From: a virus
Reading direction: 5' to 3' (one strand)
Length of the DNA stretch: 64,000 nt
IMG/VR virus record: IMGVR_UViG_3300033153_009093
Span: 1-64,000 of that record
Shown: in pieces, positions 253-47,173 of the stretch
Layout: each line of letters starts with the position of its first letter
Position numbering within the stretch: the first letter of the stretch is position 1
Made by a program: the position numbers and the translations under genes
The notes under the pieces: model-generated
Database searches by the model: none
Seen by the model: only the letters and a program-made list of their open reading frames with translations
Told to the model about the DNA's origin: nothing

Positions 253-636
253 ATGAGTGTTAGAAAACTACAGAAACTTGTTACTGACAATGAAATTTAT
301 CATTATAATGATAAAGGTAACAAAGTGAACGGGATTCATTTCAAGATCAGGGGGGACGCTTCTCATATAGATGGTAATGTAACTAATATTTGGGGTGATG
401 TTAGTAATATTAAGGGTAATGTAACTGACATTGAAGGGAATGTTAGTTATATTTGGGGAGATGTTACAAAACTTAGAGGGAATGTTAGTTATATTTGGGG
501 AGATGTTTCTTGTATCAGGGGAGATGTAACTAGTATCAGTGGCGATGTCAGTGGTATCAGTGGTGATGTGGATAAATGTGAACTTTCTACAGACGATAGA
601 CTAAATGGTATAAATATTTCTGAATTGATTCAATAA
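253..636 (+). CDS. Heptad-repeat (G-D/N-V-S/T-x-I-x) putative beta-solenoid protein
   Basis: About 10 tandem 7-aa repeats, e.g. GDVSNIK GNVTDIE GNVSYIW GDVTKLR; uses TGG; TAA stop. Confidence 0.7.
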   Translation: MSVRKLQKLVTDNEIYHYNDKGNKVNGIHFKIRGDASHIDGNVTNIWGDVSNIKGNVTDIEGNVSYIWGDVTKLRGNVSYIWGDVSCIRGDVTSISGDVSGISGDVDKCELSTDDRLNGINISELIQ

Positions 637-787
637 TAAATAATATTTAAAAGAAAAAATGCGTTTGGAAAACTTTGACACTCAAAAAAAGACAATATGT
701 AGTGCTTGTAGCGGTTATAAGCGATACAAAGGTAACAGCTGCGAATGTAATGTTAAATGAATACATTACCGTAAGCGGAAGAGAGAA

Positions 788-1633
788 ATGTTGATAGTTA
801 AAAATAGAAATAGGGAAGTTGCCGATTTTGCAAATATAAATTTATTAGGCGAATGTAACGCTAACTGTTTTTTTTGTTTAGGTAAAGATATCTCTGCGGA
901 ATTATATGGAAAAAATCAACTAAATGTTCATTATAATGAATGGAAATCATTTAGTGAGTTTTTATCTATATGTAAAAACAATAATATTAAAAAAATATAT
1001 TTTACAGGACAAACCGCTGATGGGTTGCAATATAAGTATTTACAAGAAGCTATAAATTTTTTACATAGAGAAAACTTTACAGTAGGCGTTAGGACTAATG
1101 GTTTATTAGCTGAACAAAAAATAAATATTATTAAACAATTTTCTGGGGGTATTGGATATTCAATACATTCCCTTAATATAAGATCCAATTATAAAATTAC
1201 TGGATCTTATATTATACCTAACTGGGATAAAATTATTCCATTATCTGGCAATAATGTTAGGGTATCAATAGTATTATGCAAATATAATATAAATGAATTT
1301 TTTGATATTATTAAATATTTATCTAAATTTAATAATGTTAGATATATTCAAGTTAGAAGAATATCGACTGATACCAGATACGAAGAATTAAAGAGTCATA
1401 TAGTTTTATACGAAGAATTATATAAGGAAATAAATAATATTTTTAATTCTTATGGTAATTTTTACGGTGCTCAACAGTTCAATATTTGCGGAAAAGAAGT
1501 GAATTTTTGGAGGACGGTTGAAACTACTGTCAATTCATTTAATTATTTTACCGATGGTACAATATCAAAAGAATATTTTATTGTAGAAGGGTATTTGAAA
1601 CATCGAAAAAATGATATACAACCCGAGGAATAA
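788..1633 (+). CDS. Radical SAM protein
   Basis: CxxxCxxC (CNANCFFC), FTGQ..D and RTNG motifs. Confidence 0.85.
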   Translation: MLIVKNRNREVADFANINLLGECNANCFFCLGKDISAELYGKNQLNVHYNEWKSFSEFLSICKNNNIKKIYFTGQTADGLQYKYLQEAINFLHRENFTVGVRTNGLLAEQKINIIKQFSGGIGYSIHSLNIRSNYKITGSYIIPNWDKIIPLSGNNVRVSIVLCKYNINEFFDIIKYLSKFNNVRYIQVRRISTDTRYEELKSHIVLYEELYKEINNIFNSYGNFYGAQQFNICGKEVNFWRTVETTVNSFNYFTDGTISKEYFIVEGYLKHRKNDIQPEE

Positions 1634-2318
1634 TTATTTAATTATTATGAAGATTTATAGTAAATTCACAGACTATTACGATCATGCAACAGGGTATTAT
1701 TCTAATGATGTAGTATGGAAAAGATGCATCAAAATGGATAACATTAAAGATGGAATATTCAATACTGAATATTCTAATGAAACCAATAGAACCCTTGTAA
1801 ATATTTGGAATGATTCTCCCAATATAAATTCAGATGAATTATTCATTGTCGGTTTTTGTGGTAAAATATATATTGCCATTTCAAAATATACTAATAATGA
1901 GTTAATAGGTTCATATATTAAACCTTTGAAGAAAGAAAATTTTAAGTACTGGGATTATCATAAATATACCGACTGGATGCAAAAATATTCTTATCAAGAC
2001 TTTTCAAATATCTTTATAGATATCAAAAGTCCTATTTTTATTATTAAAAATAGTTATATCGGATATTCATTATCTAAAAGAAATTATTTTGGGTATAATT
2101 TAATTATAAATCCTTGTTTAAGAGATTTTAAATTGCAGAGCGCATTCAATCCTGTTCAGGCTTATCAAGAAATTGAAATGTTTCTCAGTAATCAAATGGT
2201 CATGGTAGATGACCCGGATATTAAAAGGTCTGATGAACTAATTCGGGATTCTAAAGGTTTTAATAATTGGTCATTTAAACAACAAGGCCCGAAGAAAAGA
2301 AAGAGAAGGAAAATATGA
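1611..2318 (+). CDS. Hypothetical phage protein
   Basis: 235-aa ORF, 5 TGG, no TAG; likely start at internal MKIYSKFTDYYD. Confidence 0.6.
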   Translation: MIYNPRNNYLIIMKIYSKFTDYYDHATGYYSNDVVWKRCIKMDNIKDGIFNTEYSNETNRTLVNIWNDSPNINSDELFIVGFCGKIYIAISKYTNNELIGSYIKPLKKENFKYWDYHKYTDWMQKYSYQDFSNIFIDIKSPIFIIKNSYIGYSLSKRNYFGYNLIINPCLRDFKLQSAFNPVQAYQEIEMFLSNQMVMVDDPDIKRSDELIRDSKGFNNWSFKQQGPKKRKRRKI

Positions 2319-2647
2319 TAAAAGTAATGATTCCGAGTGCTCCTGTATATATAGCTTTCGATACTGCAAGTGGATATGATATTATTATAACTGTAACAAG
2401 TGTTCAGTATTTTTTTTCATTTTACAGAGAATTAAATAAGTGCTGTCATGTAATTAAATTCTCTAAACATGTTAATATAGATGAACTGGAAAAAAGATGG
2501 GTAGGTGAATTTTTTGCTTGTGAAATTTACGCTAATGTAAATCATTTGTATAATAAAAGCGATATTTTAAATTTCTTTAATATAATGGCCATTGATACTA
2601 ATTATAATTATATGGGCGAACTTGATAAATTGCGATATAATAGTTGA
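2315..2647 (+). CDS. Hypothetical protein
   Basis: ATGA overlap with upstream gene. Confidence 0.55.
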   Translation: MIKVMIPSAPVYIAFDTASGYDIIITVTSVQYFFSFYRELNKCCHVIKFSKHVNIDELEKRWVGEFFACEIYANVNHLYNKSDILNFFNIMAIDTNYNYMGELDKLRYNS

Positions 2648-2674
2648 CGATATTCAAAAAGGATATTTATTAAA

Positions 2675-2866
2675 ATGAAAATATTAGTAATAAAAATTAT
2701 AGGAAGTCTATTATTAACAATATCATTTATTATCATTTATGATATTATTTTTTATTACACTTATGGTATTAATAATACTTCTATGTGTATATTATTTTTT
2801 ATAAACGGAAGTATTATTTCGGCTCTTATGAATCGATTGATAAAATATAAGGATAAATTTAAATGA
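2675..2866 (+). CDS. Small membrane protein
   Basis: Two hydrophobic segments. Confidence 0.5.
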   Translation: MKILVIKIIGSLLLTISFIIIYDIIFYYTYGINNTSMCILFFINGSIISALMNRLIKYKDKFK

Positions 2867-3090
2867 GTATATCAATTGTTAATATTAATAAAATTGAAAG
2901 GGTAGTTATTCAATGGCCTGCGGATGATCAAAGTGGTTTTAAAAAAGCAAAAACTGAACTAAAATCTATTTATGGAAATAGTATGGAATATATAACTTTT
3001 CTTTTTGGACTGAAAAAAGAAAACGGAAAATTCATTCATGAATGGACTGTAGATATCGTTACTAAAATGTATTGTAGAAATAATAAGTAA
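2863..3090 (+). CDS. Hypothetical protein
   Basis: ATGA overlap with upstream gene. Confidence 0.5.
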   Translation: MSISIVNINKIERVVIQWPADDQSGFKKAKTELKSIYGNSMEYITFLFGLKKENGKFIHEWTVDIVTKMYCRNNK

Positions 3091-3138
3091 AATATACTTA
3101 TCAAATAAATATTATTCAATTTCAATTAAAGGTATTAT

Positions 3139-3945
3139 ATGTTAAATGAAAAATGGACACCTATTGAAGGTTATGACGGAAAATATCATGTTTCTAATAA
3201 AGGAAATATTAAATCTTTAAAAGATTCTGACAATCCTAAACTACTAAAACTTTCCAAAATATCCAGCGGAGAATATAGAGTCAATTTAAGTAATAATGGT
3301 ATGACTACGGTATATAATGTTGGTAGATTGGTAGCTCATTATTTTTGTGGCAATGATGGTAGAAGTGTCAATTGCTGTAAAGCAGTCCATGTCACTAATC
3401 TTCGTTTAGATTATAAAGACAGTGATAAAAGTAATAATTGCTATTCTAATCTTAAATGGACTATCATTAAATTAAAAACAACAAATGATTCTGATGAAAA
3501 AGGGCATTATACCGAAGCCGTTTCATTTAATGAATGTAACGCTTTTATTGAGACGGCAATAAAAGCCCATAAGGTTATTTTATGTTATGTATACAATTCA
3601 TATGACATGCCTAAAACGTGCGAACAAGCTTTTGTAGCGGCATACAACTACACCAACCATAAAAATCAATGTTATATCTGTACAAATGGTTATAGTTACA
3701 AAAATGCCCGACCAATGATAAAATTGTATAAAATGAAATCCCCTCCTAATGTGGTTAACTCGTTAATAAAAAATAAATGGGAAATTAATTCTACTGGCAA
3801 TTGGACAAATTCTGATATTGATTTAATTTTTACAAACAATATGTTTTTGAATTGTCACAAAGATGTTGTTAAAAAGCCTGATGGAAATTTTTACACCGTT
3901 AAAGGTAATCAGAAACTGTTGTCTGATTGGGTAGAAGAGCGATAA
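3139..3945 (+). CDS. NUMOD4 / degenerate HNH protein with unknown C-terminal domain
   Basis: EKWTPIEGYDGKYHVSNKGNIKSL (NUMOD4-like); LDYKDSDKSNNCYSNLKW resembles HNH with His replaced by Tyr. Confidence 0.7.
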   Translation: MLNEKWTPIEGYDGKYHVSNKGNIKSLKDSDNPKLLKLSKISSGEYRVNLSNNGMTTVYNVGRLVAHYFCGNDGRSVNCCKAVHVTNLRLDYKDSDKSNNCYSNLKWTIIKLKTTNDSDEKGHYTEAVSFNECNAFIETAIKAHKVILCYVYNSYDMPKTCEQAFVAAYNYTNHKNQCYICTNGYSYKNARPMIKLYKMKSPPNVVNSLIKNKWEINSTGNWTNSDIDLIFTNNMFLNCHKDVVKKPDGNFYTVKGNQKLLSDWVEER

Positions 3946-4014
3946 TCCATAAATAGAATTGCCGGTAGTTTATAGTTATCAGTAATTCTATTTTTAAAAT
4001 AATTTATATTATAT

Positions 4015-4386
4015 ATGATACATAATATTAAAGCAGACTCATTAATTGATAGCGCAAAACTAAAATATTTGATTATTTGTATTATATCAATTCCAAAAAC
4101 CCCCCATTTTCAAAAAGACTTTACTAATTTATCTCTGGAGGAAATTGAAAAAATATATGGTAAAGAAGATGATCGTATGGTATATTCTTATGCAGCAAGG
4201 GGGCTAGGTGACATGACTATCCCAAAAGTAATTAGTCCCGATCCATTACCAAAACTTCGATTGTTTGATATCGAAATAATATTAAAATCTTATATTTATC
4301 CTCATGAATGTTGGGTATTTTTATATCCTAATAAATATTCTCAATCAAAACAAAAAAGAATTATTATATTTAAGAATTGCAAATAA
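4015..4386 (+). CDS. Hypothetical protein
   Basis: 123-aa ORF in co-oriented gene run. Confidence 0.5.
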   Translation: MIHNIKADSLIDSAKLKYLIICIISIPKTPHFQKDFTNLSLEEIEKIYGKEDDRMVYSYAARGLGDMTIPKVISPDPLPKLRLFDIEIILKSYIYPHECWVFLYPNKYSQSKQKRIIIFKNCK

Positions 4387-4449
4387 TGTCAGTTTAAATT
4401 CTGAATATATCACTAATATTACAATTACAAAATTAAATAATTATTAAAA

Positions 4450-4641
4450 ATGAAATGCAAAAGGGAAATAATAGATCATTCTAAAGCAAAATGCAAATAT
4501 TGTAGAAATAATATAAAAAAAGGGGAAAATGTATTTATCTTAAAACAAGTTCATGTATCCCCAAATTTTGTAAATTTAATATTTCATTATAACTGCTTTA
4601 ATGAAATAACAAGGACTTTCCATAATGGATATTTAACTTAA
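4450..4641 (+). CDS. Small putative zinc-binding protein
   Basis: CKYC...FHYNC (CxxC/HxxC). Confidence 0.55.
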   Translation: MKCKREIIDHSKAKCKYCRNNIKKGENVFILKQVHVSPNFVNLIFHYNCFNEITRTFHNGYLT

Positions 4642-4980
4642 ATGTACACTATAAAAATAACTTACAAAACTGGGAATAGTTTTGGTTCTCATACTGAAAT
4701 AGATTTAATTGGTGCCTGCTGGGAAAATATAAATAAGGCAGGTGAAACGCTAGAAAAAATAAGAATCCATAATAATTATTTTAATGATAAAAATAATTAT
4801 AAAAAAACTTTTCATAAGAACAAAGAACTTGAAAAGCATTCAGAATATTCTATTGCAATAGAATCTGATAATAATGAAAAAATAATTATTACCGCTTTTT
4901 GGCGGGGATATTTCGAACGTTTAATATCTGCCGAAATTGCTTTATATGATCCTGATAATGATTACATTGTTGAATTTTAA
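4642..4980 (+). CDS. Hypothetical protein
   Basis: Abuts previous stop codon. Confidence 0.55.
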   Translation: MYTIKITYKTGNSFGSHTEIDLIGACWENINKAGETLEKIRIHNNYFNDKNNYKKTFHKNKELEKHSEYSIAIESDNNEKIIITAFWRGYFERLISAEIALYDPDNDYIVEF

Positions 4981-4995
4981 AATAATAAAATCGTC

Positions 4996-5472
4996 ATGAA
5001 AATACGAAAATGTAAATCTATTTGTAAAAATTGTATAGGTTCAAAATGTGTCGATTTAATACCATTTAGATTATTTTATAAATGGGAAGGATATAGTGGG
5101 TTTGCATATGATTTTATTACAGACGATGAAATCATAACAGCATTTTCATATATATCATATTGTGACATTGAAAAAGAATGGCAAGATGATATAACTCTAT
5201 ATGAAACAAAAATGGTACCAGATAGCATTAAACACGCTATAAGGATTGCTGCATTAGTTGAAGCTATTCGGGACGGGAAAGGTATAGATCCGGTTGCCTT
5301 TGATACCTACGCTCATCTTTCGCCATCTTGTATTTATGATGGTAATCATAGAATACGAGCATTACAATATCTTAAATTCGATTTTTTTCCAGCAAATTTA
5401 AGTGGATTAGTTACGGAATTAAATAAATTTCGTAGAAAATATTATAGACAGCAGATAAAAATAGTTATTTAA
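4996..5472 (+). CDS. ParB/Srx-like domain protein
   Basis: IYDGNHRIRAL motif. Confidence 0.6.
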   Translation: MKIRKCKSICKNCIGSKCVDLIPFRLFYKWEGYSGFAYDFITDDEIITAFSYISYCDIEKEWQDDITLYETKMVPDSIKHAIRIAALVEAIRDGKGIDPVAFDTYAHLSPSCIYDGNHRIRALQYLKFDFFPANLSGLVTELNKFRRKYYRQQIKIVI

Positions 5473-5488
5473 ATAAGAAAAATTTAAT

Positions 5489-5986
5489 ATGAATAAAATA
5501 CTTTTTACTTTACAAATTCATTCGGTAGTTGACTTAATTACAAATAGTTCCTCTGAATTATTTGTTGGTACATATGATTCAAAAAATACAGTAATTGAAT
5601 TAATTAGATCCGTATATCCTAATTATTTAGAGGAATACGAAGAAGTTAAATCAATTGATGAACTTTCTATTGAAGAATTAGAAGATTATATTCAATATAA
5701 TTATATGTATACTTATAAATACTTTGATTTGAAATTAGATAAATATGTTTATCAGCATACACCGCCTCATATAATTCCGGGGTTTAAACCTGAAGAAATG
5801 TTTGATACCCAATGTTATAGTACTATATATGTTCAAGATTTTTTTGTAGAAGATAATTATGATAGAATTATTAATAATCTTGATCCCGAAAAAAAAATGT
5901 TTTTTCTTTTTTCAAAAGGAGATAATCCTAATTGGGATATTCAGAAAAAATTATCTGAAATAATGTCAAGATATCACTTAGGATAA
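5489..5986 (+). CDS. Hypothetical phage protein (SVVDLITNSSSELF motif)
   Basis: Distinctive N-terminal TNSSSE motif recalled from phage proteins near radical SAM genes. Confidence 0.55.
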   Translation: MNKILFTLQIHSVVDLITNSSSELFVGTYDSKNTVIELIRSVYPNYLEEYEEVKSIDELSIEELEDYIQYNYMYTYKYFDLKLDKYVYQHTPPHIIPGFKPEEMFDTQCYSTIYVQDFFVEDNYDRIINNLDPEKKMFFLFSKGDNPNWDIQKKLSEIMSRYHLG

Positions 5987-6030
5987 AATTAATTTAATAA
6001 ACAATAGGCTATTAAAATGCCAGAAAAATT

Positions 6031-6342
6031 ATGAAAGGTTATTTGGGCGAAATAATTATAAATATTAAAGATAGTAAATTTGCACATTATAAAATTGCAG
6101 ATTGGGCGAAATTTTGGATTGAAAATTATAGTCAAATTGATGGTGATCATCATAAAGCTAGAATATTAGATCAAACTTTACAAATTTTACATAAAACACC
6201 TGTTATTATAACGCTGGCAAAATGGAAAAATGGACACGAAGAATATAGATTTTCGTTAGGTAAAAAAAGTAAATCCTATTTAAATTTTTTAAAATTATAT
6301 GAAGAAGGTATATATGCTTGGTATAATGGATTTGATGAGTAA
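6031..6342 (+). CDS. Hypothetical phage protein (QIDGDHHK motif)
   Basis: 103-aa ORF, several TGG. Confidence 0.55.
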   Translation: MKGYLGEIIINIKDSKFAHYKIADWAKFWIENYSQIDGDHHKARILDQTLQILHKTPVIITLAKWKNGHEEYRFSLGKKSKSYLNFLKLYEEGIYAWYNGFDE

Positions 6343-6407
6343 ATGTCAATTCTTATAAATTTATAGTTTGTAAAACTATCTTACTTAAATTACATAATTT
6401 ATTAACT

Positions 6408-6432
6408 AAAGCGACTATATGTCGCTTTTTTT
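6408..6432 (+). terminator. Intrinsic terminator
   Basis: aaagcgac-tatat-gtcgcttt followed by T run. Confidence 0.75.
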
Positions 6433-6433
6433 A

Positions 6434-6462
6434 TTGACAAATTAAAATTTATAATATATTAT
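6434..6462 (+). promoter_or_regulatory. Sigma70-type early promoter
   Basis: TTGACA-17 nt-TATTAT. Confidence 0.7.
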
Positions 6463-6559
6463 ATTCATATACTATTCAACAATTTTATAGTTCAATCGGG
6501 TCAAATTTTGAATATATAACATCTAATAAACTGCACATCATAGTTAAAAGGATTAAATT

Positions 6560-6772
6560 ATGAGTCTACAACCACCTAAATGCACTCAGCCAAATAGAAG
6601 GGATAGTTTTACAATAGAACCCGGTGCTGATCTATTTATAGAAACATCAAACCATAAAACTATTAGAATTGATGTTCGTGATGATTGTATAGAAATTTAT
6701 CAATCAAATGGAACTAAAATTGAATTGTGTACCTTCGGAGGCATGGCGGGAGTAAGGATTGTGGGAAATTAA
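6560..6772 (+). CDS. Hypothetical protein
   Basis: AAAGGA RBS, downstream of promoter. Confidence 0.6.
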   Translation: MSLQPPKCTQPNRRDSFTIEPGADLFIETSNHKTIRIDVRDDCIEIYQSNGTKIELCTFGGMAGVRIVGN

Positions 6773-6839
6773 ATAGGAGCGCAGAAAAATAATAAAGGAG
6801 GGAGGTAGAATATGCACTCCTTTATTATATCAATCGATT

Positions 6840-7079
6840 TTATTTACAGTCTGGCCGTAATACTTCAATCATTTCAGCTAATGTTACAGGTGAATTCATA
6901 ATACACTCATCATTCTGAAGTAACTTTTCAGAAGTAACACAACTATGTTCTTTCATATATTCGATAAGTAATTTAATTACTTTATTCTTTTTAGCTGCTG
7001 ACAAGTTAATACTAATAGTCATTTCATTATTATAAATTTTAAAATCAACTTCATCATCTTCTATTAAATAGTTTGGCAT
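6840..7079 (-). CDS. Hypothetical protein
   Basis: Abuts the Hen1-Pnk stop codon. Confidence 0.55.
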   Translation of the reverse strand: MPNYLIEDDEVDFKIYNNEMTISINLSAAKKNKVIKLLIEYMKEHSCVTSEKLLQNDECIMNSPVTLAEMIEVLRPDCK

Positions 7080-9209
7080 TTAAAATCTCTCAGCTGCATT
7101 TCCTACATTAATAACATTAACGCCTAGCACATTCCAACAACATTCAATAACTTGTTTTCTATCATCAATTGCCGCCAATACGTCATACTTGTATCTAATA
7201 TGATTATCAAACAATTCAGTTTTAATAAAATAATCCTTTCTTACATCTCCTGTTTTTCGCATGAATAAATCTTCATTTCTTATAGTAGGATTTACAAAAG
7301 ATTGTAACCATTCCAAAGTATCTACTCGACAAGAATCATCTCTGCCTGATAAAAATATTATTTTATAATCATTTAAATATTTCAATCCATTTATAATATT
7401 TATTACATGTTCATTTGGAATATCTGTTAAAACTTTAGAATAATCAAATATGACTCTATGTTTGTTTAAAGCTAATGTACCATCAATATCTACAATGTAA
7501 ACTTTTACGTTACCTTCAATAGGTTCATATTTGCGTACATATTGTCGCTGATAATTAATATATTGTTTAAGTAATACCTCATACCCAACTCCGCCTAAAC
7601 GCTGTCTATCGCGCTTTAAAAGTTCTTCAAACTCTACAGGAAAAGCTTTAATGACTATTTCATATCCACGATCTTTTAATTTTTCAATTAATTTATTTCG
7701 ATAATGTTCATTAAGGTTTGTATCAGATAAAACGACATTCCATTTATCTTTTATAGCTTTATCCAATTGTTTATTCCATTCATTAGTTACTGCGCTTTCG
7801 TTTCGTTTTGTAAATTTATAGTTATTCCAATTCTTTTCAACGCCTTTAAATCTTATATTATCTCTATTAATTTCTACCCATTTATAAGGTCTCTTTCTAC
7901 AAAATGCTTCTGCAAATGTAGATTTGCCGGAAGCCGAACAACCAATAGTAATAATTACTTGAGGCTTAATATTCATATTAGTTATTATTAATCCATGTGT
8001 TGTATATTCATTATTTACAGAATCCCCAATATTAACAAATTCATATGTATAAGAATTATTATCGGAATTTAAAACAGAATTTATCCAGTATCTAAATCTA
8101 TTTGATGACATTTCCCATTTATGATCATCGTCCCTCATTTCCTCACTACTTAATAAATAATTTTTATTAAAATCTTTATTTGGAGTTGTAATGAAAATTT
8201 GATGAAAATTTAATTTTAAAACTTTATTTATTAAATCTTCTGCTTCTATTACTGACATATGTTCTATGACTTCTGTAAGCAATATATCAACTTGGCTTTC
8301 GTTTTTATATTGTTCAATGTCAGTATACGTTTTTACATCTAACTGTCTAATTTCTGCTTTTTTATCAATAACATTTATTACATCTGATTTAATATCAATT
8401 GCATGATATGTAAATTTATTTTTTCTTGTTAAATTAAATACGTATAAACCTTCACCGCAACCGATATCTAAAATACTTCTATCATTAGATAAGTATTTTT
8501 CAATAAATCTTAATCGCTGAAAATTAACTGATCCATTGCAAAGACTTATATTATCGCCTTCTAATAGCTCTTTATGTTCATTGAATTTATTTTTGTCTTG
8601 TAAATAATTTCTTGCAAAGATATATCTTAAAAAGTAAGGCAACTCCAATTTATTAATAATATTAATATACTTAATTAAAAATGCATCATTTATTTTTGCA
8701 ATATAAGAACCTTCCTTACCTGATAAAAATAAACAGGATAACATTGCCATATTAATTATTTCATTTAATGTAGTATTAGGATCATAAAATGAAATTCTAT
8801 ACGTATCAATGTCAATTACTTCATAAGTCATATCAATGTTTAAATGGGCTTTTAATTGTTTTAAAACTCTTGAACTTTTAGTTGTTACATATTCTAAAAC
8901 AATTTGCTGACCGGCTTTTGTATCATATTCGGATACTTCTTTTATAGTACTTCTTAAAAACTCTGAAAGTAAACTAAGATAAACTAAAGGAGAACTAAAC
9001 TTACTTTGCGAAAGGTATTCGAAATTTTCTTTTGAAAATGAATTAGCGTCTTCGCCATCTTTAAAAAATAAATTATATTGATTGTTGTCGCTAAACCAAC
9101 CAATCCCTAACCCTTGACGAATAGGCCTTGTTGAGATTCCTGAGTGAGGATTTTTATAAATCGCCCATGAAAAATTCTCACTATTTGAAAAAATTTTTAA
9201 TAATGCCAT
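7080..9209 (-). CDS. Hen1-like RNA 2'-O-methyltransferase fused to T4-type polynucleotide kinase/3'-phosphatase
   Basis: Hen1-like N-terminus; LDIGCGEG, TEVIEH, TTPNKDFN, DDHKWE; P-loop GCSASGKST; HAD motif IVDIDGT; 10 TGG, no TAG. Confidence 0.85.
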   Translation of the reverse strand: MALLKIFSNSENFSWAIYKNPHSGISTRPIRQGLGIGWFSDNNQYNLFFKDGEDANSFSKENFEYLSQSKFSSPLVYLSLLSEFLRSTIKEVSEYDTKAGQQIVLEYVTTKSSRVLKQLKAHLNIDMTYEVIDIDTYRISFYDPNTTLNEIINMAMLSCLFLSGKEGSYIAKINDAFLIKYINIINKLELPYFLRYIFARNYLQDKNKFNEHKELLEGDNISLCNGSVNFQRLRFIEKYLSNDRSILDIGCGEGLYVFNLTRKNKFTYHAIDIKSDVINVIDKKAEIRQLDVKTYTDIEQYKNESQVDILLTEVIEHMSVIEAEDLINKVLKLNFHQIFITTPNKDFNKNYLLSSEEMRDDDHKWEMSSNRFRYWINSVLNSDNNSYTYEFVNIGDSVNNEYTTHGLIITNMNIKPQVIITIGCSASGKSTFAEAFCRKRPYKWVEINRDNIRFKGVEKNWNNYKFTKRNESAVTNEWNKQLDKAIKDKWNVVLSDTNLNEHYRNKLIEKLKDRGYEIVIKAFPVEFEELLKRDRQRLGGVGYEVLLKQYINYQRQYVRKYEPIEGNVKVYIVDIDGTLALNKHRVIFDYSKVLTDIPNEHVINIINGLKYLNDYKIIFLSGRDDSCRVDTLEWLQSFVNPTIRNEDLFMRKTGDVRKDYFIKTELFDNHIRYKYDVLAAIDDRKQVIECCWNVLGVNVINVGNAAERF

Positions 9210-39817: not shown

Positions 39818-41268
39818 ATATTTCCTTTCGTTTTAAATTTTAATTTTCCGCAATCCCATACTCTATCATAACCATTATTCAAACAATTCCGATATTCTGT
39901 CAATTCAGGATTATATGTATTAAATTTTTTCTTCAATATCTTTTTTTGAAAACCTCTTTTATGAAGTAGATATGACTTGCCTCTAAAATAATAATAAGAA
40001 GGATCGACTTCATGAACAAATTTAAATCCATTTTTCAAATAAACCTTACCTTCAAAATATCGAAGGTCTGCGAAAGTATATATTGAATTAAAATTATAAT
40101 TATTAATAAAACATTTCAATAACTTAGAAAAAGCGCCATGAACTAATGTATTCTTTTTATTAACAAATCTTGTCAATTCGTAATCTTCTTTGTTTTTTCT
40201 AAAAGATATTGCGCTAACTAATTGATCTTTATAATATAACCCAAAATGTTTACCTCCAAAAAATCCTTGAATATGATTATTATTAAAGAAATCTTTTGAT
40301 ATTTTAGAATTAATTATTTTTATTTTACATTTCCTTGCACCGATCTTTGTTTCATAAATATTTAATTTTGCGAGAATAATAGATTTTATTATTTCTTTTT
40401 TAAATATCCATTCTGGTTCAAAGATAGATAGTAGTTGATGTCCTTCTTTTTTACAACCTAAATATTTTTCTTGATGATATCTAATAGGATTTTTATTATT
40501 ATTTTTTAATACTTGTTCGGAATGCCAGTAAATGCCGTTAAATTCAATTGCAAGTTTAAAAGAAGGTATCACTATATCTAACTCTTTTCCGTTCAAAATA
40601 GACCTATTAGACTGCTCGTAATCAATAGTTTTAGAATCAAGGAAAGCGCATATTTCTAATTCTGGTTTTGAAATATTTTTTGAACACATATTACAACCAT
40701 TTCCTCTTAAATGACCTTCGGGGGTTTGTTTAAATATTCCATGGATTGGACAAATAATTTTTACATGTTTTTGAGAATGTATATATATAGTAACTGAATA
40801 ATCATACTTATTATTATATATATTATTTGCCCTATGTATAAATTCTTCAATAGTTAATGTTTGATATTTTCCTCTTTTTTCTATTGAACACTTTTTACAT
40901 CCTTGTAATTGATTCAAATGCGCATCTGGAGTTTGTTTAAATATTCCGTGAATTGAACAAATAATTTTTATCTTGGTTCTACAATTCTTATATTCTACTA
41001 ATGAATAATCATACTTATTATTATGAACTTTACTAGCTCGTTCAATAAATTCCTGAATTGAAAATTTTTTATTATTAATTGAACACTTTTTACATCCTTG
41101 TAATTGATTCAAATGTGCATCTGGAGTTTGTTTAAATATTCCATGTTCAGAGCAAATAATTTTTATCTTGGTTCTACAATTCTTATATTCTACTAATGAA
41201 TAATCATACTTATTATTATGAACTTTACTAGCCTTTTCAATGAATTCTTTTGTTGTTAATTTTTTCAT
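39814..41268 (-). CDS. Hef-like homing endonuclease with N-terminal Zn-binding repeats
   Basis: 3 repeats of HNNKYDYS...IIC..HG.F.QTP..HL...GC..C; LDIVIP, AIEFNGIYWH; ARKC, NHIQG, ELTRF, ADLRY, VWDCG. Confidence 0.8.
   Translation of the reverse strand: MKKLTTKEFIEKASKVHNNKYDYSLVEYKNCRTKIKIICSEHGIFKQTPDAHLNQLQGCKKCSINNKKFSIQEFIERASKVHNNKYDYSLVEYKNCRTKIKIICSIHGIFKQTPDAHLNQLQGCKKCSIEKRGKYQTLTIEEFIHRANNIYNNKYDYSVTIYIHSQKHVKIICPIHGIFKQTPEGHLRGNGCNMCSKNISKPELEICAFLDSKTIDYEQSNRSILNGKELDIVIPSFKLAIEFNGIYWHSEQVLKNNNKNPIRYHQEKYLGCKKEGHQLLSIFEPEWIFKKEIIKSIILAKLNIYETKIGARKCKIKIINSKISKDFFNNNHIQGFFGGKHFGLYYKDQLVSAISFRKNKEDYELTRFVNKKNTLVHGAFSKLLKCFINNYNFNSIYTFADLRYFEGKVYLKNGFKFVHEVDPSYYYFRGKSYLLHKRGFQKKILKKKFNTYNPELTEYRNCLNNGYDRVWDCGKLKFKTKGNI
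40883..41232. repeat. Tandem duplication with 195-nt period inside the endonuclease gene
   Basis: Near-identical copies starting at 40883 and 41078. Confidence 0.9.
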
Positions 41269-41271
41269 TTA

Positions 41272-43416
41272 TTATTCTTTTATATTTTCAACAATTTTAC
41301 TAGAATTAATTGCCACATATCGAATCATAAATTGACAGTTCATTGTGATAGTGGTTGCAAGAATTATATTAAAAAGGCGGGAACGCCTAAATCCCAAATA
41401 TCCATAAACACTATTAGCTATAATCTTATCAACCAATTGAGCAATATTTAAATTTAAAATCTCTGGATCATCCGAAAGTAACCCTTGTTCTTTTACTTTC
41501 TTCTTCATTTCTTTTTTAATTGACTGCCTATCAGAAATAGGAAATCTAATTAACTTACGGAAAAATGATTCTTTAATATGAGCAGGCAAAAACACCGCAC
41601 CCGTTTCTGTCAATACTAATTCCTTTTCATACATCTTTTTAAATATCTCGATTATTTCAAAATGTTTAAATTTTTTAAATATATCATTTACAACATCATA
41701 AATTTCTACAACTAGGTTTTCGTTATCAGTTATGAAAGAAATAAAATTATCTCTTTCATATAAATACAATAGAGCTATATTTTCAGGAACTTGATACACC
41801 CAACTATCGCAACCATTATTCGTTGAATAAATACTAGAGGGGTACATACTACTTGCATCAAAGTCTATCACATTTAAATGAATACCTTTTGATGGTGTCT
41901 TGACATATGCTCCCGGATACTTATCATAATTCCAAATGAACGGAAACTGCCCCTTTGTTAATTTGATATTTTTTAAATCTACCGTTTCTAAATCCTTTTC
42001 AGTTAAATCATTGTATATATTATATTTTACTTCATTCAACTCTTCTTCATTTGTAAATAATGAAAAGGTTTTATTATCTTCTCTTAATCTTTGAATAAGT
42101 TCTAATCTACTATCATTTAAAAAATTCAAACGTCTATATATATTCCATATTTTTTGAGTATAAAAACTTTGAACTTTTATTGCGGATGTGACCATTAATT
42201 TATTTTTCTTTGCTTCTGTAGATATATATGCATCAAGGATATTATTAATTGAAAGCGTTGCCGCAGTAAACCCCCTTGTCATCATTTTTTGTTTAAATAA
42301 AATCTTAACAAATAATAATTTATCATCTATCAATTTATTTAAAATAACATCGCCTACATTATATGTAATAAAATTTATAGGATCTGTTAAATATTCCACA
42401 TTTAAATTAGAAATTTCTATTTTTGCTGTAATATTATCTTCTTCTTTTTTTAAAATCTTTTTGGCAATTTTATTTAACGCATAAGATGGGTAATTGGTTC
42501 GGTCATAAAATTTTATTAATTGAATATAATCCAGACTTAATATTTTAGTAGTATAATATGTATAAGAATTCATACCAGTTTTACTATCTACAATATTTAA
42601 TGTCTGATAAATTTCTCCAAATGAATCATTAAAAGCTCCTAATATTTTGATATGTTTACATCTATTATAAGTATACAATGTATCAAAATTTAAACTATTC
42701 CAACCCATCATTACGTCAAAATTTTTTATATATTTTAAAAATTCTATTATTAATTTTTTCTCATTATCAAATTTAAATATTTTATATTTATAACCTTCAC
42801 CGAATTTTTCTTTTAATTTTTTATATAAACCTTCATCAAAATTTTTAATTTTATCATGATGTAAATTATTATATAAAAAATAAACATTTATGTTGTTTTT
42901 TTGTAAATCAATATGAGCAATAGAATTTATTTCATATTTTGCCTGCTCCGCTTCCGGGAATTCTTTATCATCATGTAAAACTTCAATATCAAATATTCCA
43001 ATTTTAATATTATTTAAATAATCATTATCATATTGGAATATTTCTTGTTGTAAAAATTGAGTTTCGATTTTATAATCATCATATATATCAAATTGAAAAG
43101 ATAATATAGATGGAAATTTATTTAATAATTTTAAATTCTTCTTTCCTTCATATGCACTCGTTAATCCTTTCTTTAACGAATTATAATTCCTATATGTTAA
43201 CGTTAAATCCTTTACCTTTTCTTCTAACGGTAATGTATATCTTATTCGCTTTGTAAATTTAGATAGTTTTACTGTATATTTAGGATCATGTTTATGCCCT
43301 GTTATTTTTTTTGAATTACCATTACTATCTATTTCTTTAATTATATAATGTAAATTATTATCTTTATAAGAATAGTAGGCATCTATTGGGTAATATTTCT
43401 TTGTTTCTGTTGTCAT
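41272..43416 (-). CDS. polB: Family B DNA polymerase, N-terminal part (split gene)
   Basis: Exo I FDIEV, Exo II WNSLNFD, Exo III YNVGD, motif A DFDASSMYPS, motif B KIIANSVYG; TAA follows soon after motif B, motif C (DTDS) absent. Confidence 0.88.
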   Translation of the reverse strand: MTTETKKYYPIDAYYSYKDNNLHYIIKEIDSNGNSKKITGHKHDPKYTVKLSKFTKRIRYTLPLEEKVKDLTLTYRNYNSLKKGLTSAYEGKKNLKLLNKFPSILSFQFDIYDDYKIETQFLQQEIFQYDNDYLNNIKIGIFDIEVLHDDKEFPEAEQAKYEINSIAHIDLQKNNINVYFLYNNLHHDKIKNFDEGLYKKLKEKFGEGYKYKIFKFDNEKKLIIEFLKYIKNFDVMMGWNSLNFDTLYTYNRCKHIKILGAFNDSFGEIYQTLNIVDSKTGMNSYTYYTTKILSLDYIQLIKFYDRTNYPSYALNKIAKKILKKEEDNITAKIEISNLNVEYLTDPINFITYNVGDVILNKLIDDKLLFVKILFKQKMMTRGFTAATLSINNILDAYISTEAKKNKLMVTSAIKVQSFYTQKIWNIYRRLNFLNDSRLELIQRLREDNKTFSLFTNEEELNEVKYNIYNDLTEKDLETVDLKNIKLTKGQFPFIWNYDKYPGAYVKTPSKGIHLNVIDFDASSMYPSSIYSTNNGCDSWVYQVPENIALLYLYERDNFISFITDNENLVVEIYDVVNDIFKKFKHFEIIEIFKKMYEKELVLTETGAVFLPAHIKESFFRKLIRFPISDRQSIKKEMKKKVKEQGLLSDDPEILNLNIAQLVDKIIANSVYGYLGFRRSRLFNIILATTITMNCQFMIRYVAINSSKIVENIKE

Positions 43417-43459
43417 AAAAATTGATTAATTTGTTAACATTTTAAATATGAGGTTAATA

Positions 43460-43594
43460 ATGAAAATAACAGCGTTTTGTCCAGTTTGCAAAGAATAGAT
43501 TGAGATGCCTAAAATAGGATGAAGTAAATTAAAAAAATACTTCTGCAAGGTTTGTAGAAAAGCATATCCTATTCATAGATTAAAGAAAAAATAA
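43460..43594 (+). CDS. 44-aa zinc-ribbon ORF containing in-frame TAG and TGA
   Basis: GAGG RBS; MKITAFCPVCKE*IEMPKIG*SKLKKYFCKVCRKAYPIHRLKKK then TAA. Confidence 0.45.
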
Positions 43595-43604
43595 TACTAA
43601 AAGT

Positions 43605-43823
43605 TTATTCCATGAGTTTTAAACTATAAAAAATTAAATCTCTTTGGACACTAATACCAACTACTTCCAAATCAACCGCTTCATATATTGATTTATTTAT
43701 AATTACTAAATATCCATCATCTACTCTACATTTAGGTATAACATTTTGAAAGAATGTTTCAAATGTTTCATCGCATGCATTTCTAACGTAAATTTTATTA
43801 CAATGATTTATTGTTTCTGACAT
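43605..43823 (-). CDS. Hypothetical protein
   Basis: ORF in operon. Confidence 0.5.
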   Translation of the reverse strand: MSETINHCNKIYVRNACDETFETFFQNVIPKCRVDDGYLVIINKSIYEAVDLEVVGISVQRDLIFYSLKLME

Positions 43824-43825
43824 TG

Positions 43826-44440
43826 TTATTTTTTCTCATAATAGAATACTAATTGATTTGGAAATCTTAAAGTGAAGTTATTAAATATTTTTACTTCTAA
43901 TTGTGATTCAATTTCTTTTACTGTTTTGAATGCTGATAAATGTACATTATTTGGCTTATCTTGTAAAGGAATAGTTCCTATAAGTTTACCATTCTTATTT
44001 AATATTTTTTTTAATTGTATGATAGCATTTTCAGGATTTTTCAAATGTTCAATTATTTCAAATGCAATTATAGTATCAAATTTATTTTCTTTATATGAGC
44101 TATTATCAAGAAAATAATTTACATCCATATTTAAAGCTATTAAATTGGTATGATTTTTACTTTTTTCTATTAACTTATCTATTCGGTTTTTTGAATAATC
44201 TATTGCAACTAAACTATTCATAACAAACTTATTTAATAGAAATAAGGAAGTTTCCCCTGTTCCGCAGCCAAAATCTAAAACATTAGAATTTTTATTGAAA
44301 TCTATATTAAAATAAGCTATAATTTCTTTAAATGTTTTTAATGTCATAGATGCATTTAAAAATTTACGTTTATCAAAATATGTTACATTGTTTTGATAAT
44401 GACTTAATGCGTTTTTCTCCGTTTCATATTTACAATTCAT
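43826..44440 (-). CDS. Class I SAM methyltransferase
   Basis: VLDFGCGTG, IDYS, FEIIEHL, GTIP. Confidence 0.85.
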   Translation of the reverse strand: MNCKYETEKNALSHYQNNVTYFDKRKFLNASMTLKTFKEIIAYFNIDFNKNSNVLDFGCGTGETSLFLLNKFVMNSLVAIDYSKNRIDKLIEKSKNHTNLIALNMDVNYFLDNSSYKENKFDTIIAFEIIEHLKNPENAIIQLKKILNKNGKLIGTIPLQDKPNNVHLSAFKTVKEIESQLEVKIFNNFTLRFPNQLVFYYEKK

Positions 44441-44664
44441 ATAGTCTTAACCTTATTTTATTTGTTTTAAAGTTATTTTATTAAAGGGATTCTTAAAAAT
44501 TGTAACTTTTTTATTTGTAATTAAATCAATAAAACTTATTATTTCCATTGATTTATATCTTCTCTGCAATTTTTTATTATTTGTTTCGAAATAAAATTTC
44601 TTATTATTGAAAATGCATTCAATTTTCATAAATTAATATTATTAAAAGTAAAAGGTAAATTTTA

Positions 44665-45135
44665 ATGCCAAAATATAATAACAATACTCCAGCATCGCAA
44701 GGTAATGAATATTTAAAAGTTCCGCCACATACAAAAGATTTTGAAAGTATTTATTTTTATAACATAAATCATGTTAATATATCAGATGAGCCTCCGTATT
44801 ATAATCCTATATTATATAAAGATATAATAAATTTTTCATCCATAAATAATTTTCAAGTAAATTTAACAGATAATATGATAGGTCAAAACACTTTTCTTTT
44901 TATTCAAGTAAATTCAAAAAATTCTACATCATTGACAGATGTAGAAATAATTTTTAATGATATTAATAATTTACCATCATTACCAATATCAAATTCTGTA
45001 TTTACTATTAATAATAATCATAGAATAAAAAAAATTTTTATTAATACTAAAAATTGTAATGGCGAAATTATCATTTTAGTAACGGATAAATTTATACCTT
45101 CTTTTCCGTCAATGTCTTATGACTATAAACCATAA
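44665..45135 (+). CDS. Hypothetical protein (late-type composition, no Trp, no TAG)
   Basis: AAAGG RBS; near-match to the late motif upstream. Confidence 0.55.
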   Translation: MPKYNNNTPASQGNEYLKVPPHTKDFESIYFYNINHVNISDEPPYYNPILYKDIINFSSINNFQVNLTDNMIGQNTFLFIQVNSKNSTSLTDVEIIFNDINNLPSLPISNSVFTINNNHRIKKIFINTKNCNGEIIILVTDKFIPSFPSMSYDYKP

Positions 45136-45193
45136 AAAATTTAATGTCAAGATTATAAAATATCTTGACATTAAATTAATCATATGATAAAAT
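45122..45193. promoter_or_regulatory. Divergent sigma70-type promoter pair whose -35 boxes form an inverted repeat
   Basis: Minus TTGACA(45150-45)-17-TATAGT; plus TTGACA(45165)-17-TAAAAT. Confidence 0.7.
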
Positions 45194-45219
45194 TATTAAT
45201 AACCAATCAAGGATATATT

Positions 45220-45645
45220 ATGAGAATAAATAATAATAAAAATTTATATATGAAAACTGATAACATTAATAAGTGTTATATAGGATTTCATGAGAACAAT
45301 GAAACAACTAATGATATAATATTACATAATAATATACTAAGTTTATATATAAATTATATAAAAAATAAAAAATTATTATCATTAAAATATTTTAAAATAT
45401 TATTACCATTATATTATAAATTTACATTTAATAAAACTATAATTTATAAAAATATAAATTATGATATTACATTAAAAGAAAATTTAATTACTCTATTAAA
45501 TGATTATTCAGTTATTCAATTATATAAAATTATGTTATATTATATTAACGATGATGATATAGATATTAAACAATTAACGGCAATGTTTTATTCAACTTTG
45601 TATTACATTAATAAGGAGATAAGTACAGATAATGGAATTAACTAA
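45220..45645 (+). CDS. Hypothetical protein
   Basis: Start moved from 45184 to 45220 because of the AAGGA RBS and the promoter position. Confidence 0.5.
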   Translation: MRINNNKNLYMKTDNINKCYIGFHENNETTNDIILHNNILSLYINYIKNKKLLSLKYFKILLPLYYKFTFNKTIIYKNINYDITLKENLITLLNDYSVIQLYKIMLYYINDDDIDIKQLTAMFYSTLYYINKEISTDNGIN

Positions 45646-47173
45646 AAATCAAAAAGGTATTATTGAAAGCGCGAAGGAAAATGGATTTATTAAAATTAAT
45701 GCATTCGCTGGAACAGGAAAAACTACAGTATTAGAATATTTAACAAAGACTTACAGTAATCAAAAATTTTTATATTTAGTATTCAATAAAAATATGGCAA
45801 ATGAAGCTAAAAAGAAATTTCCAGATAATACTCATGTTTATACTATAAATGGTTTAGCTTATAGATTCTCTCGATATGAACTTAATTTCGTAACTGTAAA
45901 AAATGGATATAGAGTTATTGAAATAAAAAATTATCTTAATATTACAAAATATGACATTGCATTAATAACAATAAATATATTTAATTCATTTTGTAATTCT
46001 GCTTTCAAAGATATAAATAAAAAAGTTGTATTGGATCTTATCAATACTAATGATGAAATGAAATTAGTATTCGCAAGAAATAAACAACATATCGATGATA
46101 TAGTTAAACATATTTTAACTATATGGAATAATATGTTTAATTCGGAATTAGAAATAACTCATAATTTTTATTTAAAATATTTTCATATTAATATTGATAG
46201 AATGAAAGATTTTATAAATTATGATTTTATTCTATTAGATGAAGCGCAGGATACTAATGATATTACATTGGATATATTTAATAATTTAAATGGTAAAAAA
46301 GTTTTAGTCGGAGACAAGCATCAAGCTATTTATGGCTGGCGGGGAGCTGTCAATGCTATGACAAAACTAAATGATAGTAATGTTAGAGAGTTATATCTTA
46401 CAGAAACTTTTAGATTTAATAATAATATAGCAACCAAAGCAAATTTTTTACTTAACGACTTATTAGGCGAAAACAAAAAAATTATTTCATATTACCCTGA
46501 TAAAGATAATCAAATAAAATCAAGATGTTGTATAACTAGAACTAATGCCGGTGTCATTAAGGTATTCAGTAAAAATTATAATAAAGGTAAAATAATAAAA
46601 ACTATTAGAAATCCTGACGATATATTTAAATTGCCATTATCTTTATATTATTTTTTAAAAAATAAAACTAAATATAGAAATGAAATAAAAGTAAAATGGC
46701 TTTATAATTTTAGATCAAGAGATGATATAAAAAAATATGCTCAAAGTATTAATGATATTGAACTTTTAACTTCTTTAAGTATTGTAGAAGAATTTTGGGA
46801 AGATTTAATTGATATTTATAAAAATGCAAAAGCATTTAGAAGAAAACGAAAAGTGGATTTATTTATCACAACAGCGCATACGTGTAAAGGTTTAGAATGG
46901 GATCATGTGACAATTTATAATGACTTTCCTAATATATTACAAAAAATATCAACTGTGACCGAAGATATAGATCATTTCAAAATGATAATATCAAATTTAA
47001 ATGATAATAGAAATAGTTTTGCTATTCAAAAAATAATTGAAGAAATAAATTTATATTATGTAGCAGTAACAAGAGCTATATATAAATTAGAAACGGATAT
47101 AACAAATTCTGATTTATTTAATCTTAGCAAAGAAACGATAAATAATTTATTAAAAGAATATCAGGATAACTAA
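45632..47173 (+). CDS. SF1 (UvrD/Rep-like) helicase
   Basis: AFAGTGKTT, VFNK, LDEAQD, VGDKHQAIYGWRG, LTETFRF, TAHTCKGLEWD, YVAVTRA; 5 TGG, no TAG. Confidence 0.92.
   Translation: MELTKNQKGIIESAKENGFIKINAFAGTGKTTVLEYLTKTYSNQKFLYLVFNKNMANEAKKKFPDNTHVYTINGLAYRFSRYELNFVTVKNGYRVIEIKNYLNITKYDIALITINIFNSFCNSAFKDINKKVVLDLINTNDEMKLVFARNKQHIDDIVKHILTIWNNMFNSELEITHNFYLKYFHINIDRMKDFINYDFILLDEAQDTNDITLDIFNNLNGKKVLVGDKHQAIYGWRGAVNAMTKLNDSNVRELYLTETFRFNNNIATKANFLLNDLLGENKKIISYYPDKDNQIKSRCCITRTNAGVIKVFSKNYNKGKIIKTIRNPDDIFKLPLSLYYFLKNKTKYRNEIKVKWLYNFRSRDDIKKYAQSINDIELLTSLSIVEEFWEDLIDIYKNAKAFRRKRKVDLFITTAHTCKGLEWDHVTIYNDFPNILQKISTVTEDIDHFKMIISNLNDNRNSFAIQKIIEEINLYYVAVTRAIYKLETDITNSDLFNLSKETINNLLKEYQDN

Follow-up and report, generated by a model that had tools for sequence, protein, structure and literature searches.

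The DNA considered here is the window, that is, bases 1-64000 of the complete IMG/VR virus record IMGVR_UViG_3300033153_009093, of which it forms the left third, and the subject of this analysis is the use of the TAG codon, which divides the genes of this genome into one set that lacks it and another that carries it in frame. The full record of 180,374 bp (hereafter G000) is the genome of a T4-like phage with a GC content of 24.1%, no N and inverted terminal repeats, of which an exact repeat of 114 bp was found. When translation table 11 is applied, the right half of the window fragments into short open reading frames (ORFs), whereas reading TAG as sense gives long and almost gapless ORFs. Genes were modelled as the longest ORF of at least 60 amino acids (aa), with TAA and TGA as the only stops and TAG read as sense, and this model yielded 217 ORFs covering 93% of the genome. 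At the left end the ORF at 253-636 (+) was retained over its antisense shadow, and the start codons and smallest ORFs of the model are uncurated.

Comparisons were made principally with a relative of 276 kb (G001; IMGVR_UViG_3300021166_000052, 276,095 bp, direct terminal repeats, 29.5% GC), which was found by searching viral contigs with a terminase alignment and was then retrieved whole. A search of the viral contigs with a single sequence returned nothing, and it was the alignment query that found G001. A Logan contig of 12.9 kb (L010, 21% GC) and one further relative (L011) were also used. G000 and G001 share 102 reciprocal-best orthologues, and their kinship makes G001 a replication across roughly 50% protein divergence and not a fully independent sample. 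Blastn against a phage collection gave no match. When the genome was compared with itself by all-against-all BLAST with composition correction switched off, most hits were low-complexity noise, and the few true paralogue pairs were uninformative on the meaning of TAG.

Across the genome 150 ORFs are TAG-free and 67 (31% of the 217) carry TAG. The TAG-free genes contain no in-frame TAG in 28,562 codons, compared with 1,305 in their two other frames. The window contributes 51 TAG-free ORFs, with 91 TGG among 10,429 codons, and 22 TAG-bearing ones, with 143 TAG and 15 TGG among 9,819 codons. The division of TAG and TGG between genes was far from uniform (chi-square 283, 53 degrees of freedom, p = 4e-33), and of the 54 genes that have four or more Trp-type codons, 20 had 0% TAG, 26 had at least 80% and 8 were intermediate. 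A first-pass annotation of this stretch had described its early-type genes as neutral to a change of code and had named a uniform spread of TAG as the pattern that would count against such an organization; that pattern was not seen, and the TAG-free set would read alike under either code.

PHROG matches to TAG-free genes in the window comprised an HNH endonuclease, a Pnk-methyltransferase fusion, two radical-SAM proteins, a PAPS-reductase-like protein, an NAD ligase, a CCA-adding enzyme, a kinase, a transglycosylase-like protein, a YqeY/GatB-like protein, a homing endonuclease, a DNA polymerase, a methyltransferase and a DNA helicase, and outside the window ribonucleotide reductase and a second helicase were TAG-free as well. 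The TAG-bearing genes of known function in the window are those of the large terminase (TerL; 9 TAG), the major capsid protein (MCP; 1 TAG) and one methyltransferase (1 TAG), and the head protease outside the window has one TAG. In-frame recoded stops were thus found inside conserved essential genes; the TAG of the MCP gene is spanned by a domain match and the orthologues of these genes keep the frame. Pfam and PHROG searches of the TAG-rich ORFs at 47-64 kb, 68-104 kb and 35-38 kb gave no family match, and to call the 47-64 kb ORFs virion or tail proteins is a presumption. The earlier proposal that head, packaging and tail genes depend on a code switch holds accordingly for terminase and capsid, and its tail label is left without a family match. 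The arrangement of both classes along the window is given in Table 1.

Table 1. Gene blocks and upstream signals of the window, with their TAG and TGG content.
Position	Strand	Feature
253..10574	.	TAG-free block: small left-end ORFs, HNH endonuclease, Pnk-methyltransferase fusion; TGG for Trp; stops TAA/TGA
6434..6462	+	Sigma-70-like match TTGACA-17-TATTAT, intergenic, upstream of 70-aa ORF 6560-6772
10678..11226	-	TAG-rich island (5 TAG, 0 TGG) inside an otherwise TAG-free minus-strand block; L010 orthologue has 4 TAG
11282..15388	-	TAG-free genes: two radical-SAM proteins, PAPS-reductase-like protein, others
15452..15522	.	Divergent promoter-like pair: TTGACA-17-TATATT on minus (15480 to 15452), imperfect TTGCGT-17-TATAGT on plus (15494-15522)
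15558..20991	+	TAG-free operon with NAD-dependent DNA ligase (18 TGG) as its last gene; TAGs only in doubtful ORF 15917-16123
21386..22851	-	Two TAG-bearing genes, including 22018-22851
22947..24758	+	Large terminase, T4 gp17-like match; 9 TAG, 0 TGG
25022..27691	.	TAG-free genes flanking a divergent promoter pair: CCA-adding enzyme (minus), three small ORFs (plus)
26305..26376	.	Back-to-back perfect TTGACA-17-TAnnnT sites on both strands; -35 boxes within an inverted repeat (26320-26358)
27765..27772	+	AATTAATT motif, 28 nt upstream of TAG-bearing gene 27801-29249
27801..32155	+	TAG-bearing head-region genes (6, 3, 1 TAG), including MCP 31028-32155
32728..33368	-	Two small TAG-bearing genes, 2 TAG each
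34448..35005	-	Lytic transglycosylase/endolysin-like gene, TAG-free, 3 TGG; adjoins same-strand TAG-bearing genes
35010..37897	-	Four TAG-bearing genes, no assigned function (4, 4, 7, 2 TAG); doublet at 36961-36966
38690..39325	-	Methyltransferase, single TAG at residue 60; exception within the replication operon
39322..47173	.	TAG-free replication block: homing endonuclease, DNA polymerase, methyltransferase, DNA helicase
45122..45193	.	Two TTGACA-17-TAnnnT sites; -35 boxes form both arms of a perfect 16-bp palindrome at 45138-45177
47218..64000	.	Seven large TAG-rich ORFs (10, 7, 20, 6, 18, 19, 12 TAG; 1-5 TGG each), all conserved in G001

The coding class of a gene was largely kept in G001, as 46 orthologue pairs were TAG-free in both genomes, 36 carried TAG in both and 20 were discordant, giving a concordance of 82 of 102 pairs (Fisher p = 7e-10) and a correlation between TAG fractions with a rho of 0.63. 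Distant TerL relatives (at most 33% identity) had no in-frame TAG, save a single one in L019, and the recoding is therefore confined to a subclade. The MCP is 85% identical to its G001 orthologue. In either genome its gene has a single TAG, at codon 319, together with a single TGG, which is few TAGs for a protein that usually ranks as the most abundant of the late ones.

The stops of the 217 ORFs (TAA 179, TGA 38) follow by construction from a longest-ORF model, and ends of this kind are trivial by themselves because the next TAA or TGA is expected by chance about 14 codons away in DNA of 24% GC. Genes with their last TAG near the end were therefore compared with their orthologues. Nine near-terminal TAGs, five touching the window and four outside it, were found to continue into residues that are conserved in relatives. 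The only good candidate for a TAG terminator in the window was the gene at 22018-22851 (-), where the TAG at 22069-22071 resembles a stop; the 16 residues that follow are almost identical in L010 and G001, the site itself is TAG in L010 and Tyr in G001, and all three genes end at the same point. Orthologues also indicated a sense reading in the MCP gene (31028-32155), 49668-50939, 55925-58711 (TGG in G001) and 62108-64423 in the window, and at 72806 (TGG in G001), 81531 (TGG in G001), 100663 and 103664 outside it. Three small genes outside the window also have a near-terminal TAG (75767-76150, 168279-168719 and 174113-174307). The number of demonstrated TAG terminators is then zero, with at most these three as possible cases among the 217 ORFs, while TGA, which is compositionally as likely as TAG, serves as the terminator of 38. 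These comparisons bear out the earlier statement that genes end in TAA or TGA and that apparent TAG stops are read through.

In-frame TAG-TAG doublets occur in the window at 36961-36966 (minus strand), 54039, 57335, 61843 and 62519, and a sixth lies outside it at 102206. The largest number of TAGs in one gene was 20, in 51012-54773 (1,253 codons), and by simple arithmetic a full-length yield of 10% from this gene would need at least 89% decoding at each TAG. Furthermore, the base following a sense TAG was distributed as it is after any codon in the same genes (p = 0.81), and at real stops the next base was T in 51% of cases. The possibility that TAG is a leaky stop was rejected on the six doublets, the 20 TAGs of one gene and the neutral context after TAG. 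TAG is thus treated as an ordinary sense codon, and efficient decoding would be needed for the TAG-bearing set. The first-pass annotation had argued for near-complete reassignment over leaky readthrough from five doublets and up to 20 TAGs per gene, and both counts were reproduced, with all five doublets in frame.

Codon usage indicated which amino acid TAG replaces. TGG accounted for 0.85% of codons in the 150 TAG-free genes and for 0.17% in the 67 TAG-bearing genes, where TAG accounted for 1.11%, and there was no such change in the Gln codons (2.3% versus 2.1%) or the Tyr codons (6.6% versus 6.9%). With 303 TAG and 47 TGG in the TAG-bearing genes, approximately 87% of their Trp codons would be written as TAG. 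As a second line of evidence, a TerL query deliberately translated with TAG as Gln was searched against 1.8 billion representative proteins and 117 full-length homologues were aligned. The columns that hold TAG in the query had W in 87 of 117 homologues at position 134, in 114 of 117 at position 276 and in 110 of 117 at position 286; at position 254 W was the commonest residue, and position 309 had F in 108 homologues. Pooled over the TerL TAG columns, W reached 37% (background 1.8%) and Q 4.1% (background 3.7%). The TerL Pfam score was 23.1 bits with TAG as W compared with 19.7 bits with TAG as Q, a comparison that was possible for TerL only. Hence neither the TerL columns nor the use of Gln codons showed the alignment of TAG with Gln that defines code 15, and the terminase columns together with the depletion of TGG indicate that TAG stands for Trp and not Gln.

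The few homologues with Gln in the Trp columns of TerL are relatives whose database proteins are translated with TAG as Gln, that is, called under code 15. Among public terminases, P0002 (L011), P0005 (L012), P0006 and P0007 have Gln at sites where over 90% of homologues have Trp. Gene calling under code 15 mistranslates these phages and places Gln where Trp belongs.

In the G001 orthologues, positions with TAG in G000 were occupied by TAG in 83 cases, TGG in 43, Tyr in 34 and Phe in 9. The ratio of TAG to TGG partners of about 2:1 fits TAG as Trp, as it matches the TAG share of Trp codons in the late genes of G001. The many alignments to Tyr, and the long variable arm of the G001 tRNA(CUA), had raised TAG as Tyr as a candidate, which was rejected on three grounds: most G001 partners would then be TAT or TAC, in place of the counts just given; the invariant W columns of TerL carry TAG in G000; and it is TGG, not the Tyr codons, that is depleted in TAG-bearing genes. 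Exchanges of Trp(TAG) with Tyr between G000 and G001 orthologues (34 and 43 sites) exceeded those of Trp with Phe (9 and 7 sites), as would be expected if TAG as Trp makes a Trp-Tyr exchange a single-base change (TAG-to-TAY).

The regions upstream of the two gene classes carry different signals. The pattern TTGACA-N16-18-TANNNT was found 16 times in the window against 5.3 expected, a count that none of 100 shuffles reached, and its sites include 6434(+), 15452-15480(-), 26305-26333(-), 26348-26376(+), 45122-45150(-) and 45165-45193(+). All of the promoter-like sites described earlier were found, with the reservation that at 15494-15522 the plus-strand site departs from TTGACA in its -35 box, which reads TTGCGT. 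Genome-wide there were 28 sites, of which about 12 were intergenic (intergenic DNA makes up 7% of the genome), and 11 of these 12 preceded a TAG-free gene. In G001 the sigma-70-like pattern preceded 24 TAG-free and 0 TAG-bearing genes, and TTGACA was among the top k-mers marking the TAG-free class. The combined association with TAG-free genes over both genomes had p = 2e-5 and is significant only with G001 included. It had also been claimed that the genes linked to these promoters lack TAG and use TGG; the downstream genes are TAG-free, and since several of them lack Trp codons altogether, the use of TGG applies to only some.

The site at 45122 on the minus strand points towards the 3' end of a conserved plus-strand gene (44665-45135), and its role as a promoter of the polymerase operon is therefore doubtful. 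The paired TTGACA boxes that lie in inverted repeats (45138-45177 and 26320-26358) might act as back-to-back promoters, as an operator or as a hairpin.

A second motif, AATTAATT, recurs in the upstream regions of TAG-bearing genes, where it was first seen by reading those regions. An unbiased k-mer scan, applied to genes whose upstream gap measures 30 nt or more (23 TAG-bearing and 70 TAG-free), returned ATTAATT as the top discriminating 7-mer, present before 15 of the 23 and 7 of the 70 (Fisher p = 5e-7), a result that none of 200 label permutations reached. The 8-mer AATTAATT was found 25 times in coding DNA against 70 expected and 17 times between genes against 7.5 expected. In a pre-specified test in G001, it preceded 18 of 55 TAG-bearing and 6 of 110 TAG-free genes (p = 7.5e-6). 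The motif ends 19-47 nt before the start codon in both genomes, with a mode of 25-32, and is followed by an A/T-rich tail with the consensus TATAAA; 35 of 40 sites have A as the fifth and sixth bases past the core. In addition to the site listed in Table 1, similar sites occur at 30985 (before the MCP gene), 33393, 33897, 50965, 50978 and 55891, and several TAG-free genes with the motif open operons that later carry TAG (33609 and 122024). The tRNA(CUA) gene has a near-match, GATTAATTAAATAT, 17 nt ahead of it, which is suggestive only.

T4 uses sigma-70 promoters for its early genes and a late promoter, TATAAATA, that is read by gp55. The present genome resembles T4 in a terminase that matches gp17, in having TTGACA-N17-TAnnnT before early-type genes and in having a single AT-rich element with a TATAAA tail at a constant short distance ahead of late-type genes. 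The motif with its tail is a putative late promoter and resembles an extended T4 late promoter; however, the core AATTAATT is not part of TATAAATA, no gp55 homologue could be confirmed here and T4 uses the standard code.

The genome encodes a single tRNA, with the anticodon CUA (108714-108787; Rfam 59 bits), and a class-I synthetase gene at 134073-135023 (PF00579 match of 85 bits) whose best PDB relatives are tryptophanyl-tRNA synthetases (TrpRS) and which has 0 TAG and 0 TGG. Of the TAG-free genes, 26 of 150 end in TGA, so that the host must terminate at TGA, which excludes codes 4 and 25. These TGA ends, the sigma-70-type promoters and the decoder of TAG supplied by the phage make a standard-code host likely. 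The earlier note had reached the same host from the use of TGG in early genes, an argument that does not hold, as TGG means Trp under all known codes.

The syntenic tRNA(CUA) of G001 (112953-113043; L030) has 91 nt and a long variable arm and that of G000 has 74 nt, and both share a C1-G72 pair, U73 and an encoded CCA. G001 carries 21 further tRNAs and G000 no others. Among the TAG-free genes are several for RNA or tRNA maintenance, namely the methyltransferase-polynucleotide kinase fusion (7080-9209, -), the CCA-adding enzyme (25022-26269, -), which lies directly behind a sigma-70-like promoter, and the YqeY/GatB-like protein (38301-38693, -), and these may support or protect the single phage tRNA. 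A full-length tmRNA is encoded at 171981-172339 (-) of the genome (L008:7981-8339; Rfam RF00023, 100.7 bits), with the tag ADDYAIAMAA and a tag frame that ends in TGA, and ARAGORN found no tmRNA in G001. As speculation, the tmRNA might rescue ribosomes that run through host TAG stops under TAG suppression.

Taken as a whole, these results are in our judgement probably best explained by two translational classes, one code-neutral and one TAG-dependent, each tied to its own upstream signal. On arrival, the host ribosome with its standard code would translate the approximately 150 TAG-free genes, made up of small ORFs at the left and right ends and of genes for replication and for nucleotide and RNA metabolism, and these would be read in the same way after the switch. 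The approximately 67 TAG-bearing genes, including terminase, capsid, protease and the large conserved ORFs, would be completed only once the phage tRNA(CUA) decodes TAG efficiently, this tRNA presumably being charged by the divergent TrpRS-like enzyme of the phage. Host-type sigma-70 promoters (TTGACA-N17-TAnnnT) would precede the TAG-free genes and a AATTAATT-type motif the TAG-bearing ones, and TAG would have been removed as a terminator throughout the genome. The codon partition, the reading of TAG as Trp, the lack of TAG stops, the association with upstream motifs and the conservation of all of these in G001 are shown by the sequence itself. We lean slightly towards the broader proposal that the code switch is wired to the transcription programme in a T4-like clade comprising G000, G001 and several metagenomic fragments translated in databases with TAG as Gln, in which host-type promoters would drive only code-neutral genes and a AATTAATT-type late promoter the genes with TAG as Trp, and that this complete reassignment of TAG to Trp is one unreported for a phage or bacterium.

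A number of observations weigh against the explanation by two translational classes. The labels early and late for the two classes rest on promoter resemblance and gene function. The link with sigma-70-like sites was not significant in G000 taken alone, where 69% of genes are TAG-free in any case (9 versus 1, p = 0.44), the gene at 113674-114108 outside the window has 1 TAG and lies directly behind such a site, and the looser 7-mer ATTAATT also precedes many TAG-poor units and is an imperfect classifier. The split is not strictly binary, with eight mixed genes such as 55925-58711 (18 TAG, 5 TGG), and 53 of the 150 TAG-free genes are uninformative because they lack Trp codons. Some genes in late-looking operons are TAG-free, and so is the lysin-like gene at 34448-35005 (0 TAG, 3 TGG), as is its G001 orthologue; preferential recoding of lysis genes was not observed, this being the only lysin-like gene found, and no holin was identified. 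In the opposite direction, a TAG-rich island (10678-11226) stands in an early-looking minus-strand block. The first-pass annotation had considered the methyltransferase at 38690-39325 the sole exception; its TAG at residue 60 falls inside the domain match, and to it must be added the island and the doubtful ORF of 68 aa at 15917-16123 (2 TAG). With regard to machinery, no release-factor domain was found in the genome that could explain how host release factor 1 (RF1) is outcompeted, and a candidate for a gp55-like late sigma factor (137711-138214) gave no PHROG or PDB match. Finally, a scan of genome contigs for relatives found none and hence offered no clue to the host.

Alternatively, the partition may be the outcome of a passive ratchet, in which, given a Trp-inserting tRNA(CUA), AT mutation pressure turns Trp codons into TAG wherever this is tolerated and genes whose translation is needed ahead of the build-up of that tRNA purge it, with no function in timing or in the control of lysis. 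We consider this rather unlikely, although a change from TGG to TAG is a G-to-A change in a genome of 24% GC, and the GC-richer G001 (29.5%) has converted fewer of its codons, with TGG at 0.51% in its TAG-bearing genes compared with 0.17% in G000. The TAG fraction is likewise graded and not all-or-none, and the lysin-like gene is unrecoded, unlike the lysis-biased pattern that Borges et al. (10.1101/2021.08.26.457843) read as regulation. Drift need not, however, produce a coding class that is conserved across approximately 50% protein divergence and that tracks promoter class; a constraint tied to timing gives the same picture, and sequence alone separates the ratchet poorly from the explanation by two translational classes. 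A single code throughout, with a host that reads TAG as Trp or a decoder present from the first minute and with the bias reflecting the tuning of expression or tRNA supply, is very improbable, for although the single TAG of MCP, the most abundant protein, is what codon optimization predicts, the sole tRNA of the phage is a tRNA(CUA) accompanied by a TrpRS-like gene, which is hard to explain with a host-supplied function, codon bias gives depletion and not the complete absence of TAG from the TAG-free codons, and the recoding literature consulted for comparison, in which no search was aimed at that question, held no bacterium with TAG as Trp.

The early and late layout is already known from other stop-codon-recoded phages, and the present genome is a clear further instance of it. 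In the parts of Borges et al. (10.1101/2021.08.26.457843) on which we draw, alternatively coded phages of standard-code hosts have in-frame stops in 26-71% of genes, recoding affects structural and lysis genes but often spares replication genes, and the genes that change the code are themselves in standard code; the model proposed there begins with early translation in standard code, which supplies a suppressor tRNA, an aminoacyl-tRNA synthetase as well as a release factor and leads to the late genes. As in the crAss-like, Lak, Agate, Jade and Garnet phages (Borges et al., 10.1101/2021.08.26.457843; Yutin et al. 2021, PMC7886860), the genome described here has low GC and a recoded subset of genes (31%, within the range above). 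It further resembles the phages of Borges et al. in its standard replication genes, its recoded structural genes, its suppressor tRNA and its code-change genes free of the recoded codon, with 0 TAG in the TrpRS-like gene.

In contrast to the phages described in the same parts of these two reports, TAG is Trp here and not Gln, and no release-factor gene was found. The lysin-like gene is unrecoded here, whereas in the crAss-like and Agate phages no genes are recoded more than those for lysis. Each of the two coding classes is linked here to its own class of upstream motif, a link not seen for the phages in those parts of the reports. The closest parallel in decoding is the code-change module of the Jade phages, which, as described in the same source, combines a TrpRS, a tRNA(UCA) and RF1 and gives TGA as Trp. 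Both systems have a phage TrpRS and a stop-reading tRNA that are proposed to make a stop codon mean Trp; here the codon is TAG and not TGA, the tRNA and the TrpRS-like gene lie apart, at 108.7 kb and 134 kb, and no release-factor gene accompanies them.

The phage reassignments described in the portions of the recoding literature that we consulted are TAG as Gln and TGA as Trp. A phrase search of the literature for TAG as Trp in phages returned no report, and in the literature consulted this reassignment appeared only for Balanophora plastids, whose extremely AT-rich genome has TAG as Trp and uses TAA for nearly all termination (PMC10268348). Unlike the phage, the plastid is an organelle with one code for all genes, no early and late partition and no co-resident standard-code translation to bridge. 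The particulars of the present genome are therefore the meaning of TAG as Trp, the complete loss of TAG terminators and a coding class tied to two classes of upstream motif.

An early set of genes in standard code and a late set in a changed code is the central and still untested model for why phages change their code. This genome offers a clean case of it, with one suppressor tRNA, one synthetase, no TAG terminators and a sharp contrast between TAG and TGG that labels gene class, and since the two upstream motifs predict gene class and are reproduced in a relative, the model is directly testable. In practical terms, database proteins of this clade are translated with TAG as Gln and so have Gln where Trp belongs.

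Two observations concern mobile-element-type genes. The homing-endonuclease paralogues at 39814-41268 (-) and at genome position 116207-117103 (-) are 53% identical, and the copy beside the DNA polymerase has 0 TAG and the other 4. A TnpB/Cas12f-like ORF at genome position 122520-123851 (+) (L005:18520-19848) has a weak Pfam match to the TNB domain, below the cut-off, and 5 TAG and 0 TGG, with 6 TAG in its G001 orthologue, and would be a gene of mobile-element type written in the late code of the phage.

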